Shown here: in pieces, positions 1 through 11,763 of the stretch
Position numbering within the stretch: the first letter of the stretch is position 1
Layout of the letters: each line of letters opens with the position of its first letter
NCBI GenBank assembly: GCA_038213805.1
Contig: JBBQSO010000118.1
Location: forward strand, 1 to 13,882
Length of the DNA stretch: 13,882 nucleotides
Direction of reading: 5' to 3'
From: Planctomycetota bacterium
Lineage (GTDB): Bacteria; Planctomycetota; UBA11346
Notes under the pieces: generated by a model
Databases searched by the model: none
What the model was told of the DNA's origin: nothing
The model's input: the letters and a program-made list of their open reading frames with translations, nothing else
Translations under genes and position numbers: made by a program

Positions 1-2414
<2,414 letters not shown>

Positions 2415-2478
2415 GATCAGGTCCAACCGGGATCGGGAACCGCCACGCCGCCCCCGGGATTTCCGGCGCCGTGATGGT

Positions 2479-2640
2479 CCCTGTCCTGCGGCCTGAGAGC
2501 GTGACTCCGTCGGCGCCGGCCAAACCGGTCTTTCCAGGGTGCCGTCAAAGCGAGGTCCTTCGGCCTGAGAGCGTTACTCCTTCGGCATCCCGGTCCCGGG
2601 CGCGTGCCCGGCTGGGACTTCTCCCTCGCCTATCATCCGG
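2479..2640 (-). promoter_or_regulatory. Tandem glycine riboswitch (two aptamers plus leader/linker K-turn)
   Basis: Minus strand. Aptamer 1 (2629-2550): P1 GCGAGG/CCUCGC, GGAGA, GCCGAAGGAG, CUCUCAGG, GGAC. Aptamer 2 (2539-2479): P1 CCCUG/CAGGG, CUGGAAAG, CGCCGACGGAG, CUCUCAGG, GGAC. Leader CCG-GAU-GAU (2640-2632) can pair with linker UGA-CGG (2547-2542) as a K-turn. Ends about 65 nt upstream of the gcvP start. Confidence 0.96.
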
Positions 2641-2764
2641 CCCCTGGACTCTCCGGCACCGGCACCCCGGTCAAGTGGTGCCCGGCACCACCATCCGCCC
2701 ATGTCTCCGCACGGTCACGGCCCCCGCCCTTGCCGCGCCCGTGCCCCCGCCGACCCTGCCGGCG

Positions 2765-3226
2765 ATGCAGGAATTCGTCCTCAAAGATCTCGCAGCCACG
2801 CGGCGCCTGGCGCAGGAGCTCGCTGCCGCCGTGCAACCTGGCGACCTGCTGCTGCTCGACGGGCCGCTCGGCGCGGGCAAGACCGCCCTGGTACGCTTCC
2901 TGGTCGAAGCCCTGGGCGGGGATCCCACCCAGGTCGCCAGCCCAACCTTCACCCTGCTCCACCAGTACGCAGCGCGTCTGCCGGTGGTCCACGTCGATGC
3001 CTACCGCCTCGCCGGTGCGGGCGACCTCGCCGGCCTTGGCTTCGACGAGCTCAGCGAGGGATCGCTGGGCGTGATCGAGTGGGCGGAGCGCGTGGCTCGC
3101 GCATTCCCTCCTGAAGTCTGCTGGTCGGTGAGCCTGGCGCATGCCGGCGATGACCGCCGGCAGGTGCGACTCGCAACGCCTCTCCGCTTGCGGGGTAAGT
3201 GGTTGCACGTGCCGGGCGAGGTCTGA
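2765..3226 (+). CDS. tsaE: tRNA threonylcarbamoyladenosine biosynthesis ATPase TsaE (YjeE)
   Basis: MQEFVLKDLAATRRLAQELA..., P-loop LDGPLGAGKT, VASPTFTL, HVDAYRL, VIEWAE; 153 aa. Start set at ATG 2765 because the longer ORF from 2471 overlaps the riboswitch. Confidence 0.96.
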   Translation: MQEFVLKDLAATRRLAQELAAAVQPGDLLLLDGPLGAGKTALVRFLVEALGGDPTQVASPTFTLLHQYAARLPVVHVDAYRLAGAGDLAGLGFDELSEGSLGVIEWAERVARAFPPEVCWSVSLAHAGDDRRQVRLATPLRLRGKWLHVPGEV

Positions 3227-5515: not shown

Positions 5516-7378
5516 ATGGACGTCGTCATCCATCTTGCGGCAGATCGGCTCACGGCGGTCCTCGACCTGCCGGCCGGGCAGTGCATCGATGCACTCAGCC
5601 TGAAGGCCCAGGTCGCCCGGCACGGCATCGTCTACGGCCTCGATTGCGAGGCCGTGGTCGCCGCCACCCAGATGGTGGCGGCCGACCGGCACCTGGTGCT
5701 GGCCCGCGGCCTCGTCCCGCAACCCGGCCAGGCGGCTGTGCTGGAACCGCTCGGCGTGCCGGGGACGGTGGTGACTGGGGCCCTGGTCGGACACCTGCGC
5801 GCAGGCACCGCCGGGCAGCCGGGCATCGGCGTCGATGCCCAGGCGGTACCGGCGCCGCCGGCAGTGCCGCTCGCGCTCGGTCGCGGCCTGGGGCTGCGCG
5901 CGGATGGCGGGGTGGTGGCAACGCGTGACGGACTGCTGCTGCTGGTCCCCCAGCCGACCGTGGCCATCCCCGGCGTCCACGAGGAGGAATGCCGCAAGCC
6001 GCTGGTGCAGGTCGACACCCATGACCTCCACGCCTGGCTGGACCTGGCAGCCGGCGAGTACGTACGCGGCGCGGTCCTGGCGGCGGCCATGACCACGGCC
6101 GGGGTGCACGTCGGCGTGGATGCCGCGGCGGTCGCGGCGGCCGAGGTGACGGTCGACCATGCGCGCAAGCTGCCCCTGGCGCGCGGCACACCGCCGGTCG
6201 ACGGCGGCGATGCGCACCTCGAGGTGCTGATCGACGAACGCGCTCACCTGCGCATTGATGCGCACAACCACGCCGATTTCCACGAACTCGATTTGTTCCA
6301 CGACGTCGTGCCCGGTCAGCCCCTCGGCCGCCTGCACCCACCGACCGCCGGCAGGCCGGGGCTGGGCGTGCGCGGGCGGGTGCTGCCGGCGAAGGCAGGC
6401 AAGGCGATCGAGGTGGGCGCGCTGCTCGGCGAGGGTACGCGGCCACGCACCACCGATCCCGCGCTCATCGAGGCGGCGGCGCCCGGCATCTTCCAGCACG
6501 ACCGCCAGGGGCGCCTGCTGGTGTTGCCGCTGCTCACCATCACCGGCGACGTCAATCTCAAGACCGGCAACATCGACACCACCCTGCCGGTGCTGATCAC
6601 CGGCGACATCAAGGCGGGTTTCGCGGTCAAGAGTGGCGCCGACATCACCGTGCTCGGCGCGATCGAGGACGCGCGCGTCACTTCACAGGCCAACCTCAGC
6701 GTACGCGGCGGCATCCTCGCCGGGCAACAGCGCGTCAAGGCACATGGCGCGATCAGCGCCCGCTATGCCGAAGGCCGCCAGCTCAAGGCTGGCACGGTCG
6801 CGGTCAGCGGCAGCCTGCGCCACTGCACGGTGCTCGCCACCGCCACGGTGCAGGCGAAGGAGATCGTCGGCGGTGAAGTCATCGCCGCGCTGGACATCAC
6901 CTGCGAGGTGCTGGGCAGCGGCGACGGCCAGCGCACCCGCGTCCAGGTCGGCGTCGACCCCTTCGCCGAGAGCCTGCACCGAGCCGCGCTCGCCGAGCGT
7001 GAGCGCCTGATCGACGAGGCGGTGCAGCGCCGCCAGCGCTGCAAGGTGCTCGGCCACCACCTTGAGGACGAGCACCGCCACGGGGGCGACCCGCATGAGC
7101 AGGAACTCGCCCACGAGGTGCGCGCCGAGCTCGACGCCCTGACCGCGACCTGCGCGCGCATCGCCAGCTGCGACGCGCTGATCGCCGCCCACGACCGCAT
7201 CCTGGCGCGCGCCCGCGAGGCCGCCCTGGGCGCCACGGTGCAGGTGCGCGGGCTGGTGCATCCGTTCGTCGACCTGGCCATCGGCGAGCACGATCGCATC
7301 CACGTCGAAAGCGCGCTCACGGGGCCGCTGGTCTTCCACCTCGGCGAGAAGGACGGCACGAAGGCGGTGGTCTGGTGA
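5516..7378 (+). CDS. FapA / DUF342 family protein
   Basis: HGIVYGLD...VLARGLVPQPG and GVHVGVD...LARGTPPVDG N-terminal modules, TAGRPGLGVRG, ITGDVNLKTGNID, ITGDIKAGFAVKSGADITVLGAIEDARV beta-solenoid, TRVQVGVDP followed by a coiled-coil-like segment. Purine-rich AGGGAAG precedes the ATG. Confidence 0.88.
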   Translation: MDVVIHLAADRLTAVLDLPAGQCIDALSLKAQVARHGIVYGLDCEAVVAATQMVAADRHLVLARGLVPQPGQAAVLEPLGVPGTVVTGALVGHLRAGTAGQPGIGVDAQAVPAPPAVPLALGRGLGLRADGGVVATRDGLLLLVPQPTVAIPGVHEEECRKPLVQVDTHDLHAWLDLAAGEYVRGAVLAAAMTTAGVHVGVDAAAVAAAEVTVDHARKLPLARGTPPVDGGDAHLEVLIDERAHLRIDAHNHADFHELDLFHDVVPGQPLGRLHPPTAGRPGLGVRGRVLPAKAGKAIEVGALLGEGTRPRTTDPALIEAAAPGIFQHDRQGRLLVLPLLTITGDVNLKTGNIDTTLPVLITGDIKAGFAVKSGADITVLGAIEDARVTSQANLSVRGGILAGQQRVKAHGAISARYAEGRQLKAGTVAVSGSLRHCTVLATATVQAKEIVGGEVIAALDITCEVLGSGDGQRTRVQVGVDPFAESLHRAALAERERLIDEAVQRRQRCKVLGHHLEDEHRHGGDPHEQELAHEVRAELDALTATCARIASCDALIAAHDRILARAREAALGATVQVRGLVHPFVDLAIGEHDRIHVESALTGPLVFHLGEKDGTKAVVW

Positions 7379-8077: not shown

Positions 8078-10060
8078 CTACTTCCAATCATTCCCAAACA
8101 GCTTCCATACCGCCGGCGCTGGCTGTCCCACGGTCCCGCCGATGACCAGATCCGGCAAACCGGCCAGCGGCAGGCCCTCGCCGAGTGGCGGCAGACCGTC
8201 GATGACCACCAGCAGGCGGCCATCGCCAGCCGGGTGCGGCCAGCACAACACCACGCTGCGACCCTCGGCGCGCGACCAACGCTGGCCGCAGCAGGCGACG
8301 GTGCGCGCATCCCAGGCGACCGGCAGCGCCGTAGCCTCCGCCAATTGCGCGAGCACCTGGTTTGAAAGGGGGTTGCCGATCAGCACCAGGTTCTCGCTGG
8401 GGAAGTCGCGGGCGCGGAAGCGCACGTCGTCGACCATGCGCGCCAGACCCTGCGCGTGCTGCGCCCAGGCCTTGCGGAAGGCTTGGGCGACGGCGCGGTT
8501 GTCGGTGCGTGCGGCGAGACTTTCGCCGGTGCCGACGACCATGGCAAAGGGCCCGGTGGCATAGGTGGAAATCGGTCCGGTGGCCTGGCCGAGGCGCTTG
8601 CGCGGCCCCGCGGGCGCAGGGCGCGCCGGCGCCAGGCCGGTCACCACGGCGCGCGGTGCGGCGCAGCGCAGCGCGCCGATGCCGACAGTCGCGTAGCGCG
8701 GCGGATCGCCGGGCGTGACCACCACCGAACCGGCGCTGCCCCAGGCGGCGAGCTCCTCGACTTGCGCGCCCGGCACCGCACCGGGAGCGATGACCACGCG
8801 CTCCTGGCTGACCACCGCTGCGATCGGCGGGGCCGTGGCGAGACTCCGCCACCAGGCATCCTGGTCGGGCGCATCCACGATCCCGCTGAGCCGCGCCCCG
8901 GCGCGACCGGCGCGCTGCCACCAGTCCTGAAGCGCGGCATCGCCGCCCGCGCCGCGCAGGATGGCGATGCCGGCGAGGTGCGCCGGCCGGGCCCCGGGCA
9001 GCTGCAGGTCATCCCAACGCGTACCTGCGGCACCACCTACGCTCGCCTGCGCCGCCGGCAGATGGCCATCGACCACGGCGAGGGCCCGCACGCGCTCGGG
9101 CTGGTCCTCGGCCAAGCGGATCGCACCGGCGGCGCCACTGCCGACGCCGATCAGCGCAACCTGAGCCGTATCCAGACTAGGCCAGGCGCGCCCGGCTGCG
9201 GCCAGCGTTGGCCACGCGCGCTGCAGCGCGATCCCATTCCAGGCGCTATCGCCCGCTGGGTAGACCTCGACCACCGCGATACCGGCGCCGCGCGCCGCCG
9301 CGAGCCACGTCGCCGGCAGCTGTGACCAGAGGTGCTTGGGGCCGGGCGGGGCGGCACACAGCACGAGCGCCACCGGCAGCCGGACGCCGCCTGGCGCGGC
9401 GGGCAGATGCAGCCGCCACGGCTGGACGCTCCCATCGATGGGATCGCGCAGGGCACCGTCCACATCGCCCGGCGCGGATGCCGTCGAGCGCCTGCCGTCC
9501 AACCAACCGGCGAGCGCCGGCTGCAGTCCGGCCAACGCACTACAGGTTGCCAGTGATGGCGTGCCCTGCATGCGCTCGGCAGCCTCCTCCAGCCACAGCC
9601 AGGGCAGGGCGTCGTCTGCCGCCGGGTGGTCCTGGAGCCTGGTTGCGAACGCCTCCAAGCGCGCCTGCAGCTGACGCGGTGTGGGCAGCACGCGTTCCAC
9701 CGACCGGGGCTGGCCGGCCACACCTGCCACGGCGATGCGCAGGTGCGCCTCCGCCAGGGGATGGCCGACCGCGCTGAGGTCCGGGAACAACGTCACCGGG
9801 ATGCCCAGGCGCAGCTGCGCGCGGGTCACCCCCGGCAGCACCGCATTGGCGAGCTCTACGCCATCCTGATCGAGAGTGACGCTCAGGCGCAGGGTGGTGC
9901 GGTCATCGTCGGGGCCGTCGCCCACGCTGACGCGGCAGCGGAAGGCGAGGCCATCGCGCACCACCGTGTCGCATTCGACGAGGCGCGGCTCGGGCAGGTC
10001 TTCGCCCGGCAGCAGCGTCGCGCAGACGAGCAGCAGCAGCGCCATGCAGATGCGGCTCAT
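8078..10060 (-). CDS. Secreted alpha/beta-hydrolase-fold (esterase/prolyl-oligopeptidase-like) protein, catalytic motif apparently degenerate
   Basis: Signal-peptide-like start MSRICMALLLLVCATLLPG; DPIDGSVQPWRLHLP; LDTAQVALIGVGSGAAGAIRLA at the nucleophile-elbow position; C-terminal domain GPISTYATGPFAMVVGT...NLVLIGNPLSNQVL...LPDLVI...FGNDWK recalls planctomycete secreted peptidase/esterase-like proteins (recollection, not searched). Start overlaps the upstream stop (ATGA). Confidence 0.75.
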   Translation of the reverse strand: MSRICMALLLLVCATLLPGEDLPEPRLVECDTVVRDGLAFRCRVSVGDGPDDDRTTLRLSVTLDQDGVELANAVLPGVTRAQLRLGIPVTLFPDLSAVGHPLAEAHLRIAVAGVAGQPRSVERVLPTPRQLQARLEAFATRLQDHPAADDALPWLWLEEAAERMQGTPSLATCSALAGLQPALAGWLDGRRSTASAPGDVDGALRDPIDGSVQPWRLHLPAAPGGVRLPVALVLCAAPPGPKHLWSQLPATWLAAARGAGIAVVEVYPAGDSAWNGIALQRAWPTLAAAGRAWPSLDTAQVALIGVGSGAAGAIRLAEDQPERVRALAVVDGHLPAAQASVGGAAGTRWDDLQLPGARPAHLAGIAILRGAGGDAALQDWWQRAGRAGARLSGIVDAPDQDAWWRSLATAPPIAAVVSQERVVIAPGAVPGAQVEELAAWGSAGSVVVTPGDPPRYATVGIGALRCAAPRAVVTGLAPARPAPAGPRKRLGQATGPISTYATGPFAMVVGTGESLAARTDNRAVAQAFRKAWAQHAQGLARMVDDVRFRARDFPSENLVLIGNPLSNQVLAQLAEATALPVAWDARTVACCGQRWSRAEGRSVVLCWPHPAGDGRLLVVIDGLPPLGEGLPLAGLPDLVIGGTVGQPAPAVWKLFGNDWK

Positions 10061-10581
10061 GAACAGGCCGCCGCCATGATCTCCGGATAGAGCGTCTGGT
10101 ATGCGACGTAGTCACCGGCAATGCGCGCGATGCGTTCGCGGGTCTCGGCGCGCAGTGGCGTCAGCACCTTGCCGGGCACGCCCGCGACCAGGTGGTGGTC
10201 GGGCACCACCATCCGCTCCGGCACCACGCATCCGGCCGCGACCAGCACGCCCTGACCCAGCACCGCGCCGTCGAGCACGCGCGAGCCCATGCCCAGCAGG
10301 CTGCCGCTGCCGACCGTGCAGGCGTGGGCGATGGCCCCGTGGCCCATGCTGACCTCGTCGGCGAGTAGACAGGGCAGTTTGCGGCTGACGTGCAGGACGC
10401 AGGTATCCTGGACGTTGCAACGCGCGCCCAGCACCACTGCGTTGATGTCGCCGCGCAGCACCGCCCCGAACCACACCGAACAACCTGGGCCGAAGCGCAC
10501 CTCGCCGATCAGCGTGGCATTGGGCGCAAGGAAGGCGGGCAGCTGCGGAGTGTGGCCGCGGACAGGCATGATCACGGGCAT
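10057..10581 (-). CDS. Gamma carbonic anhydrase family protein (YrdA/CaiE/PaaY-like hexapeptide-repeat protein)
   Basis: FLAPNATLIGEVRFGPGCSVWFGAVLRGD, NVQDTCVLHV, MGHGAIAHACTVG (three His metal ligands present), LVAGVPGKV. Start at ATG 10581; the longer ORF to 10974 overlaps bioB. Confidence 0.95.
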   Translation of the reverse strand: MPVIMPVRGHTPQLPAFLAPNATLIGEVRFGPGCSVWFGAVLRGDINAVVLGARCNVQDTCVLHVSRKLPCLLADEVSMGHGAIAHACTVGSGSLLGMGSRVLDGAVLGQGVLVAAGCVVPERMVVPDHHLVAGVPGKVLTPLRAETRERIARIAGDYVAYQTLYPEIMAAACS

Positions 10582-10683: not shown

Positions 10684-11763
10684 ATGCCCCCGACCGCCGC
10701 CCTCGCCTCCGCCGCCTCGATCACCGCCCTCGCGGACGGGATCATCGCCGGGGACACGCTGTCGGCGGCCCAGGCGCGCGAGCTGCTCGAGGTCGAGCCC
10801 GGCAGCGCAGCGGCCGCAGCGCTGTTCGCCGGCGCCCAGCGCATCCGCGACCACTTCCTGGGCACGCGCGTGAAGTGCTGCTCGATCCTCAACGTCAAGG
10901 CCGGCAACTGCTCGGAAAACTGCTCGTACTGCGCGCAGGCCTCGGGCACCGCCAGCACCGACTACCAGAAGCACAAATGGCTCCCCGACGAGGACATCGC
11001 GGTGGCGAGCACCAGCGCCGCCGCCAATGGCGCCACCGCGCTCGGCTTGGTCGCGGCCTGGTGGGGGGTCAAGGAGGGCAGCCAGCTGGACATGGTCTGC
11101 GAGGCGATCGGCAAGTTCTCACAGAACGGCAAGGTGCGTGCCGACGTCAACCTCGGCATCCTCGAGTCGCAGCGTGTCGCCGACCGCATCAAGGAGGCGG
11201 GCGCAGCGGTCTACGGTCACAACCTCGAGACCGCGGCGAGCTTCTTCGGCGAGATCTGCACGACCCATTCCTATGAGGAGCGCCTCAAGACCATCCAGTA
11301 CATCAAGCAGGCGGGCATGGGCCTGTGTTCAGGCGGCATCGTCGGCATGGGCGAGAGCCGCGAACAGCGTATCGAATTCGCCGAGCAGATCCGCTTCATC
11401 GAACCCGACATGGTGCCGATCAACTTCCTGAATCCGATCGCAGGCACCAAGCTCGGCGACCGTCCGACCATGGCCGCGGACGAGGCGCTGACCACCCTGG
11501 CGGTGTTCCGCTACATGCTGCCCGACCGCAACATCATGGCCGCGGGCGGTAAAGAGGTCACGCTCGGCGAGCGCCTGCACGAGGTCTTCGCCGCCGGCGT
11601 CAATGCGGTGATGGTCGGCAACTACCTGACCACCATGGGCACCGCCCCCGATTACTGGCAGCAAGCCGCCAGCCGCCACGGCCTGGTCCTGAATCAGCAG
11701 GTCGAAGAGATCGAAGGCGGCGCGGGTAGCGATTGCGGTACGGGTGGGTGCGGCTGCGAGTGA
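10684..11763 (+). CDS. bioB: Biotin synthase-like radical SAM protein with atypical auxiliary-cluster ligands
   Basis: CSENCSYCAQ (CxxxCxxC), YGHNLET, TTHSYEERL, LCSGGIVGMGE, VPINFLNPIAGT, MVGNYLTT; 359 aa from ATG 10684 (AGGA upstream). Family is secure; exact function is less so (see findings). Confidence 0.88.
   Translation: MPPTAALASAASITALADGIIAGDTLSAAQARELLEVEPGSAAAAALFAGAQRIRDHFLGTRVKCCSILNVKAGNCSENCSYCAQASGTASTDYQKHKWLPDEDIAVASTSAAANGATALGLVAAWWGVKEGSQLDMVCEAIGKFSQNGKVRADVNLGILESQRVADRIKEAGAAVYGHNLETAASFFGEICTTHSYEERLKTIQYIKQAGMGLCSGGIVGMGESREQRIEFAEQIRFIEPDMVPINFLNPIAGTKLGDRPTMAADEALTTLAVFRYMLPDRNIMAAGGKEVTLGERLHEVFAAGVNAVMVGNYLTTMGTAPDYWQQAASRHGLVLNQQVEEIEGGAGSDCGTGGCGCE

Follow-up and report, generated by a model that had tools for sequence, protein, structure and literature searches.

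The window considered here, namely a stretch of 13,882 nucleotides of planctomycete DNA, contains on its plus strand a biotin synthase (bioB) coding sequence at positions 10684..11763 that translates, without internal stops, into 359 amino acids and ends in a TGA stop codon (positions 11761-11763). In 27 homologues, the N-terminus is consistent with the ATG start at position 10684. Read-through of the TGA codon as selenocysteine was considered and rejected, given that 13 relatives stop with TGA, TAG or TAA and that the downstream sequence is unrelated. When the whole protein was subjected to profile searches, the biotin synthase model TIGR00433 returned 309.3 bits against a cut-off of 225, and the Pfam Radical_SAM (57 bits) and BATS (70.7 bits) domains were both detected above their cut-offs. 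The HydE, PylB, HmdB and LipS2 models scored far under theirs, with LipS2 reaching 28.5 bits against a cut-off of 270. The radical-SAM CxxxCxxC motif (C76/C80/C83, corresponding to E. coli C53/C57/C60; positions 10909..10932, plus strand) is found in all 117 full-length proteins of the clade that includes the window BioB (60-84% identity), as well as in all 144 BioBs from outside the clade that served as comparison set.

Ranking of solved relatives by HMMER against PDB chains placed 8VDW (4.8e-61) before 8VCW (2.5e-52) and E. coli 1R30 (5.5e-42). The same three structures were the top Foldseek matches (TM 0.79-0.95) of an AlphaFold2 model with a pLDDT of 93.6, generated from an input alignment of 140 rows. 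The model superposes on 8VDW with TM values of 0.87/0.94 and an rmsd of 1.4 A, and on 1R30 with TM values of 0.79/0.90. The protein is a member of the BioB family and adopts the BioB fold.

Profile searches of the genome, which is 90% complete, revealed this protein to be the sole BioB above cut-off. Also present are bioA (423 bits) and bioD (123 bits), both over their cut-offs, a bioF-like gene (370.8 bits, under the cut-off of 426.45), a canonical lipA (382.9 bits) and three haem-copper oxidase genes. Taken together, these findings point to the window gene most likely encoding the biotin synthase of an oxygen-respiring planctomycete, and indeed, its product is predicted with good confidence to be a genuine biotin synthase. 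No bio operon and no other bio genes were found around bioB in the window. Instead, bioB is flanked by a divergently oriented gene encoding a gamma-carbonic-anhydrase-like hexapeptide protein and by a convergent ExbD-like gene. Across nine related loci, the hexapeptide gene adjoins bioB in two and lies some 2.7 kb away in a third, and no sulfur-donor partner emerged among the conserved neighbours of bioB in these nine loci.

Residue equivalences were drawn from HMMER pairwise alignments with PDB chains and from MAFFT alignments with E. coli BioB, all of which agree. In this manner, E. coli S43 was matched to C66, C97 to G121, C128 to D154, T130 to N156, N151 to G178, C188 to C215 and R260 to M285. 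Relative to the Type II enzyme of Blautia obeum, C52 corresponds to C66, C138 to D154, H161 to G178, C198 to C215 and R268 to M285. As such, only one of the four ligands of the Type I auxiliary 2Fe-2S cluster (C97, C128, C188 and R260) is kept, as C215. This is the assignment reached by eye in the preliminary description, which had also been reminded of Type II enzymes by the upstream Cys and the loss of C97; C66 aligns with B. obeum C52.

The same positions stand out in the clade, which takes the pattern beyond chance. C66, the relocated auxiliary-cluster Cys (codon at 10879..10881, plus strand, as are all codons listed here), is found in 116 of the 117 proteins, and the kept auxiliary-cluster residue C215 (11326..11328) in every one. 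D154 (11143..11145), a candidate carboxylate ligand in a strand predicted to span residues 152-156, and G178 (11215..11217) are likewise invariant (117/117 each), and M285 (11536..11538) is present in 116/117. The departures to Asp and Met pointed out in the preliminary description are thus genuine and conserved, as is the tail described below. By contrast, the neighbouring residue C65 is variable among relatives (C/F/A/V/M/T/R), such that the Cys pair to which attention had been drawn is not a feature; C66 alone is. At G121 (11044..11046), where E. coli has C97 and Type II enzymes have Ser, and where Gly is the hallmark of the 'Type G' group considered below, Gly occurs in 96/117 and Ser in 21/117, so that of the Type II swap (Cys at 43 and Ser at 97) the first half is present and the second appears in a minority of the clade. 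N156 is found in 105/117. At the position of G178, the BioBs outside the clade have His (96/144) or Asn (39/144). The substrate side is retained, in that the residues corresponding to E. coli N153, N222 and T292/T293, which have a role in dethiobiotin binding, are N180, N247 and T316/T317, all invariant or nearly so in the clade.

Beyond the folded core, the protein ends in a tail (residues 336-359; positions 11689..11760, plus strand) in which an acidic, Gly-containing linker precedes C351, C356 and C358. At least one tail Cys is present in 111 of the 117 clade proteins and at least two in 91; among the 111, there are 98 in which the last Cys sits within 0-3 residues of the C-terminus. Outside the clade, 23 of 144 BioBs have a Cys among the first 40 tail residues. 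Although the linker around them drifts freely, tail Cys residues are mostly retained. Their number and spacing vary, with a C-x(2-6)-C-x-C pattern in 36/117, and six clade proteins lack any tail Cys while keeping D154, G178 and M285. Of the CxxxxCxC tail originally described, it is therefore the Cys-bearing character that is conserved and not the exact spacing. Relatives of the D154 type that have His at position 178 are mostly tail-less, as in seven Planctomycetota loci and in the second BioB of the genome labelled G178. A crude genome-wide scan of open reading frames (2840 kept, many of them spurious at 70% G+C) revealed no other plausible protein with such a tail.

In the AlphaFold2 model, residues 341-359 have pLDDT values of about 50-60 (60 and 51 in the last two blocks), and the model does not place the tail. 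Prediction of a complex between the core (residues 1-329) and a separate piece comprising residues 330-359, in the presence of two 4Fe-4S clusters and SAM, gave a score of 0.58 (0.48, 0.61 and 0.58 in individual runs), as compared to 0.03 for the best of three controls, with at least 93% agreement of contacts between runs and a partner pLDDT of at least 51, an outcome that ranks as weak support. Of 157 solved complexes, 116 reach the mark applied to such predictions, as do 2 of 215 mismatched pairs, with 18 of the 157 and both passing mismatches scoring 0.60 or less. Because the piece includes the folded residues 330-336 and the task differs from those used in calibration, the core-tail score is uninformative as to the Cys residues.

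The combination of altered site and tail is also encountered in a second phylum. All 80 Verrucomicrobiota loci considered, at some 45% identity to the window BioB, carry the C66/G121/D154/G178/C215/M285 signature, with Gly at position 178 in 79-80 of the 80, depending on the alignment. An acidic linker is followed by at least one Cys in 69/80 and by at least two in 64/80, and in 4 of the 11 loci with no Cys after the linker, a Cys has shifted into the linker itself. Since the Cys residues are missing from 6/117 clade proteins and, after the linker, from 11/80 Verrucomicrobiota loci, with the site being kept in both cases, the tail is not indispensable everywhere. The Verrucomicrobiota lineage and the window BioB have ten lineage-specific residues in common; they differ at position 156, where the former have Ser rather than Asn, and in the tail, which in Verrucomicrobiota extends some 8-10 residues beyond the last Cys.

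In 5 of the 80 Verrucomicrobiota loci, all from one sublineage, a thioredoxin-TPR gene is fused to bioB or directly follows it, which hints at thiol/disulfide chemistry. No such partner was detected among ten Planctomycetota loci searched. A search for longer, fused forms (E <= 1e-40) returned two proteins, namely, a Verrucomicrobiota BioB-thioredoxin-TPR fusion and a BioB-aminotransferase fusion, neither of which falls within the clade of the window protein. In a quick IQ-TREE analysis, the Planctomycetota and Verrucomicrobiota clades each had nearer relatives without G178, and joining the two clades was not rejected by the AU test (p 0.171), for a group that was named after the tree had been seen. 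The sequences being kin, the co-occurrence of the tail and G178 may reflect one or two evolutionary events.

On the basis of these patterns, a mechanism can be proposed in which the window BioB would serve as the biotin synthase of its host, converting dethiobiotin to biotin by radical-SAM chemistry. The auxiliary, sulfur-donating site would be Type II-like (4Fe-4S/4Fe-5S), with C66 and C215 as its only two Cys ligands and the D154 carboxylate as the third. Replacement of the cluster-stacking Arg by Met285 and of the His or Asn beside the transferable sulfide by Gly178 would make space at the cluster's open face, into which the flexible tail could move, one tail Cys either ligating or capping the unique iron or else bringing persulfide sulfur, before leaving again during turnover. 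Taken as a whole, such a Cys2Asp Type II-like site served by the tail is an explanation to which we give an even chance. The assignment of a 4Fe cluster to a Cys2Asp site, with both cluster type and Asp ligation predicted from sequence comparisons, is similarly finely balanced, whereas involvement of the tail in cluster ligation or sulfur supply is suggested more tentatively, all tail roles being read from conservation.

In a bolder version, which we consider speculative and unlikely, this would be a BioB of the PVC superphylum equipped with its own sulfur arm. Here, the Cys cluster of the tail would receive a persulfide from a cysteine desulfurase, be recycled through thioredoxin and swing into the space at Gly178/Met285 to load the fifth sulfide onto the Cys2Asp 4Fe cluster. 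Were this so, many turnovers could take place in an oxygen-respiring cell without destruction of the cluster. Moreover, the missing sulfur supplier would be named for Type II BioB, for which a search for the source of the additional sulfide had been unsuccessful, according to Lachowicz et al. (2024; PMC10813225).

The tail could instead be non-catalytic, serving as a metal-binding or redox-sensing appendage, as a handle for Fe-S delivery or as an oxygen-shielding lid, with C66, D154 and C215 holding the cluster together with a ligand from outside the protein, as is the case in Type II. The clade members that lack tail Cys residues yet keep D154, G178 and M285, the variable length and Cys spacing of the tail and its low pLDDT all sit well with this explanation, as does the solvent exposure reported for the Type II auxiliary cluster (PMC10813225). 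In a host with three haem-copper oxidase genes, a protective lid would, moreover, make sense. Against it stand the Cys residues held close to the C-terminus across two phyla despite drift of the linker, the displaced Cys in lineages without terminal ones, and the rarity of the tail among relatives with His at position 178. A non-catalytic tail is deemed unlikely.

It is also conceivable that the enzyme is Type I-like and sacrificial, using a 2Fe-2S cluster bound by C66, D154, C215 and one tail Cys that would be destroyed in each turnover and rebuilt by the cell. Counting one tail Cys, four protein ligands are at hand, and the host is an oxygen-respiring organism, in line with the reported association of Type I enzymes with aerobes (PMC10813225). 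In addition, G121 is followed by AAW, matching Type I E. coli BioB and not Type II enzymes, which keeps a 2Fe-2S cluster in contention and so counts against a Type II-like site. Against a sacrificial cluster stand the closer sequence and fold match to Type II than to the E. coli enzyme, the nesting of the window protein within the D/H-128 Type G sequences in both trees, and the presence of Cys at E. coli position 43 (C66), said to predict alternative coordination well as a binary marker (legend to Table S2, PMC10813225). This explanation is accordingly thought improbable. Finally, recruitment of a BioB-like radical-SAM enzyme to another sulfur insertion or substrate, for which the several auxiliary-site and substrate-adjacent residues that differ from both characterised types and the precedent of LipS1/LipS2, first annotated as BioB, could be cited, is very improbable in light of its being the sole BioB beside bioA, bioD, a bioF-like gene and a canonical lipA, of its low LipS2 score and of the conserved N153, N222 and T292/T293 equivalents.

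The source of the sulfur inserted by BioB and the roughly one turnover achieved in vitro are old open questions. The subtype described here has lost a Cys ligand together with the cluster-stacking Arg and the catalytic His or Asn. It has acquired a conserved Cys-bearing tail, joined in some relatives by a thioredoxin partner. The tail thus offers a concrete and easily mutated candidate for the delivery of sulfur or of a ligand. Turnover of BioB is what limits strains used for biotin production, and a self-reloading enzyme would therefore be of practical value.

Among known systems, the best sequence and fold match is to Type II BioB, as represented by B. obeum (8VCW) and Veillonella parvula (8VDW), whose auxiliary cluster is of the 4Fe-5S kind (Lachowicz et al., 2024; PMC10813225). 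Shared features are the relocated Cys (C66 for C52), the kept Cys (C215 for C198) and a missing Cys where E. coli has C97. The three-Cys ligand set of Type II (C52, C138 and C198) is, however, broken by the invariant D154 in place of C138, Met replaces R268, and Gly replaces the hallmark Ser. G178 and N156 stand where 99-100% of Type II enzymes have the catalytic residues His161 and Ser140 (PMC10813225). The C-terminal Cys tail is a further difference. Type II enzymes have been reported from obligate anaerobes (PMC10813225), whereas the host of the window BioB has oxygen reductases. A non-Type I enzyme acting as sole biotin synthase in such a genome does not fit a simple division of Type I for aerobes and alternatives for anaerobes.

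The claim that this is a distinct subtype holds insofar as the site differs from both characterised types, yet its Cys/Gly/Asp/Cys combination had already been tabulated as 'Type G' (C43/G97/D128/C188; n=491, with D128 in 53.5% and R260 in 56.4%; Table S2, Lachowicz et al., 2024, PMC10813225), a motif group defined by bioinformatics only (Table S2 and Fig. S12 legend), of which no enzyme is known to have been characterised. With G121, C66, C215 and D154, the majority state at position 128, the window BioB carries each of these residues. It departs from Type G at the H161 position, where the group has His (31%) or Asn (61%) and the window BioB has Gly, at the S140 position, where Ser (93%) gives way to Asn, and at R260, replaced by Met (PMC10813225). 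AlphaFold models of Type G contain no other potential cluster-coordinating residue near the Gly (supplement, PMC10813225), which counts against a site served by the tail. Available portions of Lachowicz et al. (2024) make no mention of a tail in Type G, and a literature search revealed no follow-up on this group and no account of a Cys tail in BioB. What goes beyond the Type G listing is that D154, G178 and M285 are nearly invariant together and are accompanied by a C-terminal cluster of Cys residues behind an acidic linker. Also added here are the finding that G178 occupies the position of the catalytic His of Type II and the Asn of Type I, and the recurrence of the whole package in Verrucomicrobiota.

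With Type I BioB (E. coli, 1R30), which relies on a sacrificial 2Fe-2S cluster, the window enzyme shares the reaction family, fold, radical-SAM motif, C188, AAW segment and N153/N222/T292-T293 equivalents. It differs in that C97, C128 and R260 are all replaced, N151 is now Gly and a Cys is found at the S43 position. [quoted passage not shown] As LipA represents another family and fold region, employs Ser rather than Cys and binds its cluster through another motif, the likeness is one of principle only. A second parallel may be drawn with BsaP, a Cys-bearing helper needed by actinobacterial BioB that is fused to BioB in Pseudonocardia and has been placed near the auxiliary cluster by prediction (PMC11099021). 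BsaP, according to the same source, is a small folded protein with three conserved Cys residues that serves a Type I enzyme, whereas the appendage of the window BioB is an unstructured tail of some 25 residues; in both cases, a BioB would be provided with a Cys-bearing appendage or partner.

Examination of the forward strand revealed an ORF at positions 10684 to 11763 that is translated without stops into P0001, a BioB of 359 residues. The frame is open upstream as far as a GTG at 10390; despite this, the start was set at the ATG at 10684, because 27 homologues begin at the same Met. The tail Cys residues are C351, C356 and C358, and the stop codon that follows is TGA. Within P0001, the Pfam domains Radical_SAM (residues 75-235) and BATS (residues 245-334) were identified, and the NCBIfam bioB equivalog TIGR00433 matched with 309.3 bits (cut-off 225), while the HmdB, PylB, HydE, LipA and LipS2 models scored only 25-77 bits, all far under their cut-offs. 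In HMMER alignments, the nearest solved structures were those of the Type II enzymes of Veillonella parvula (8VDW; 4.8e-61) and Blautia obeum (8VCW; 2.5e-52), followed by the Type I enzyme of Escherichia coli (1R30; 5.5e-42). The same order was returned by Foldseek for an AlphaFold2 model of P0001 built from 140 aligned sequences (pLDDT 93.6, pTM 0.91), with 8VDW matching best (TM 0.87/0.94, rmsd 1.4 A, 35% identity). Only one BioB over the cut-off was found in the genome (5.5 Mb, 90% complete), which also contains bioA (423 bits; cut-off 405), bioD (123 bits; cut-off 83), a bioF-like gene under its cut-off (370.8 bits; cut-off 426) and a canonical lipA (382.9 bits), the latter also being a weak second match of the bioB model. 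P0001 retains the counterparts of E. coli N153, N222 and T292/T293, which are reported to bind dethiobiotin in 1R30. Score, fold and context thus all identify P0001 as a BioB. The presence of three haem-copper oxidase subunit I genes indicates that the host respires oxygen.

In the window, which has a G+C content of 70%, bioB is solitary, its neighbors encoding a hexapeptide (gamma-carbonic-anhydrase-like) protein, an ExbD-like protein, a DUF72 protein, a 660-residue protein without a family, a FapA-like protein, a GT2 glycosyltransferase, TsaE and GcvP. The gcvP gene (3-2426, reverse strand; GDC-P, 613.7 bits) is immediately preceded by a glycine riboswitch aptamer (RF00504; 2543-2636, reverse strand; 48.6 bits against a gathering score of 32), a textbook arrangement. 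The tsaE ORF (2471-3226, forward strand) runs into the GT2 gene, which starts at 3141; as the TsaE domain spans just residues 105-231, a tsaE start far 3' of 2471 is probable. The FapA-like (DUF342) protein (5516-7378, forward strand) contains both FapA_N and beta-solenoid domains, here in a planctomycete host. The 660-residue protein (8078-10060, reverse strand) begins with a signal-like segment and matches no Pfam family; in two related genomes, homologues of it adjoin the hexapeptide gene, at loci L040 (43% identity) and L045 (about 30%).

The residues of the auxiliary cluster site were next considered by aligning BioB from the E. coli K-12 record with P0001 using MAFFT, in a small alignment as well as in one of 270 sequences. 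All alignments agreed in pairing E. coli S43, C97, C128, T130, N151, C188 and R260 with P0001 C66, G121, D154, N156, G178, C215 and M285, respectively, while B. obeum C52, C138, S140, H161, C198 and R268 correspond to C66, D154, N156, G178, C215 and M285. As such, HMMER and MAFFT bore out the equivalences drawn by eye in the preliminary description at every position. D154 lies within a predicted strand (residues 152-156), the strand that bears a ligand Cys in the solved enzymes. Of the five residues with a known part in shaping the auxiliary site of the two solved types, three have fixed replacements in P0001. Conservation was counted over 117 full-length proteins of the P0001 clade, chosen as having D154 and G178. 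Here, C66 (116/117), C215 (117/117) and M285 (116/117) are kept, position 121 is Gly in 96 and Ser in 21 proteins, and position 156 is Asn in 105, Ser in eight and Thr in four. By contrast, the C65-C66 pair proposed earlier as a feature does not hold, since position 65 varies across the clade (C, F, A, V, M, T or R). In two clade members, an anecdotal number, Cys replaces Gly at position 178; one (P0098) lacks a tail Cys, as though it had been relocated to the barrel, and the other (P0059) retains its tail Cys pair.

According to a published survey, Type I enzymes present Cys at position 97 (PMC10813225), whereas Type II enzymes present Ser at 97 and Cys at 43, and bind a 4Fe-5S cluster through C52, C138 and C198, with R268 stacking on the cluster and H161 lying beside the extra sulfide (PMC10813225). 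Types G, A and D were named there as further motif groups by bioinformatics only (PMC10813225). For Type G (n=491), Table S2 lists C43 at 95.1%, G97 at 98.6%, D128 at 53.5%, C188 at 99.8% and R260 at 56.4%, while the legend of Fig. S12 divides the C128 position among Asp (52%), Cys (41%) and His (7%) and describes models in which no further residue near the Gly could coordinate the cluster; the H161 position is His in 31% and Asn in 61%, and the S140 position Ser in 93% (PMC10813225). Because Type G was tabulated and, according to Table S3, none of its members was expressed or assayed (PMC10813225), the Cys/Gly/Asp/Cys pattern is catalogued, not characterized. In the literature collection searched, no later work dealt with Type G or with a Cys tail in BioB. 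Of the distinct auxiliary-site subtype proposed in the preliminary description, what stands is a sharply defined sub-form, the pattern itself having been catalogued already. P0001 is a member of Type G, of a sub-form with Asp-128, Gly-151, Met-260 (E. coli numbering) and a Cys tail, which is found both in a single family of Planctomycetota and in a large lineage of Verrucomicrobiota.

Beyond the BATS domain, at least one Cys is found in 111 of the 117 clade proteins and at least two in 91, with the tail containing CG in 88/117 and CGC in 51/117. In 98 of the 111 proteins with a tail Cys, the last is 0-3 residues from the C-terminus. The linker sequence drifts freely within the clade, while the Cys is retained. 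Of the six proteins without a tail Cys, five belong together in a small, short-ended group that has Ser or Thr at position 156. As a comparison, Cys occurs in the first 40 post-domain residues of 23/144 other BioBs. Within the BioB family, ends with Cys seem to have more than one origin. A Cys-rich C-terminal extension is also seen in a Type I-like BioB of 414 residues (P0260), and Streptomyces BioBs with such extensions appear in supplementary Fig. S4 of the survey (PMC10813225).

A word-indexed search yielded 2578 proteins at E <= 0.001 among 8000 scored candidates. The best 120 of these share 60-84% identity with P0001, every named one being labelled Planctomycetota/Planctomycetes. When 50%-identity representatives were searched exhaustively, the clade formed one cluster (P0082; 498.6 bits, 64%), with the next match dropping to 274 bits and 42%. 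Across 201 sampled genomes of the phylum, 127 gave a BioB match at E <= 1e-20, yet identity of at least 55% was confined to the taxonomic family of the window, being seen in all nine relatives and the genome G000; next best were a second copy in the genome G178 (51%) and a pair of genomes from a different family (46-48%). Genome G178, of the same family as the window, carries two BioBs (L048, G178:C42:31400-44400, and L042), one being of the P0001 type with a tail and the other, 51-52% identical to P0001, having Asp-128, His-151 and Leu-260 and no tail. Other Planctomycetota variants include a tail-less Asp-128/His-151/Phe-260 form at seven loci. Trees built with FastTree (179 rows) and, quickly, IQ-TREE (80 rows), each with E. 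coli as root, gave the same picture, which should be read purely as description since the sequences are related by descent. The P0001 clade is monophyletic (support 96-100) inside a group whose C128 position is Asp or His; the nearest relative of the clade, at L019 in the same taxonomic family, has His at 178, Val at 285 and a two-Cys end, and next come two genomes whose residues 178 and 285 are Asn and Met, respectively.

When relatives longer than P0001 were sought, P0270 (657 residues, 45% identity) was returned, in which thioredoxin and TPR domains lie C-terminal to the BioB part. Using P0270 as query, 80 genomic loci were recovered, mostly titled Verrucomicrobiota, Limisphaerales, Pedosphaera or subdivision 3. 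C66, G121, D154, S156, G178, C215 and M285 are present in all 80, and the ends comprise a conserved acidic linker and then a Cys cluster (at least one Cys in 69/80, at least two in 64/80, CGC in 42/80); in four of the 11 loci without a post-linker Cys, the Cys has shifted into the linker. Ten positions (A73, A119, W126, G132, G149, R152, D154, Q163, G178 and M285) are at least 90% conserved in both clades and rare elsewhere. The Cys-bearing end thus travels with the fixed auxiliary-site change in two phyla. The larger group (support 90) in which the P0001 clade lies also takes in the Verrucomicrobiota clade, which sits beside a sequence without G178; in an AU test, a single clade of all G178 forms was not rejected (p 0.171), one and two origins being indistinguishable. 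A thioredoxin-TPR frame (WCGPC) is fused to bioB (L054) or lies directly 3' of it (L055, L056, L058 and L060) at 5/80 loci. At L054, BioB and thioredoxin-TPR share one open frame, with an odd stretch in the BioB part that could be a frameshift.

A mechanism can be proposed in which the auxiliary cluster would be of the Type II (4Fe) kind, held by C66, C215 and the D154 carboxylate; a 2Fe-2S cluster is a possible alternative. On a 4Fe cluster, replacement of the bulky Arg and His/Asn by Met and Gly would open the face where Type II enzymes have the fifth sulfide. A tail Cys may then enter the opened face as a fourth ligand, cap or persulfide carrier, with the small residues beside it (CG, CGC) permitting close approach. 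The thioredoxin partner at five Verrucomicrobiota loci fits a thiol/disulfide cycle. Counter to a role for the tail, its Cys is absent in some members, including L060, which has a thioredoxin-TPR partner yet no tail Cys, and its spacing is variable. The last two ten-residue blocks of the P0001 model have pLDDT values of 60 and 51, and complex prediction with a piece of the tail gave weak support and no contacts. Precedents for an active tail can be named. Swinging C-terminal Cys arms are employed by mercuric reductase, large thioredoxin reductases and HypE. In LipA, a Ser of the C-terminal RSSY motif ligates the unique iron of the donor cluster. Actinobacterial BioB has a Cys-bearing helper, BsaP, that is fused to BioB in Pseudonocardia (PMC11099021).
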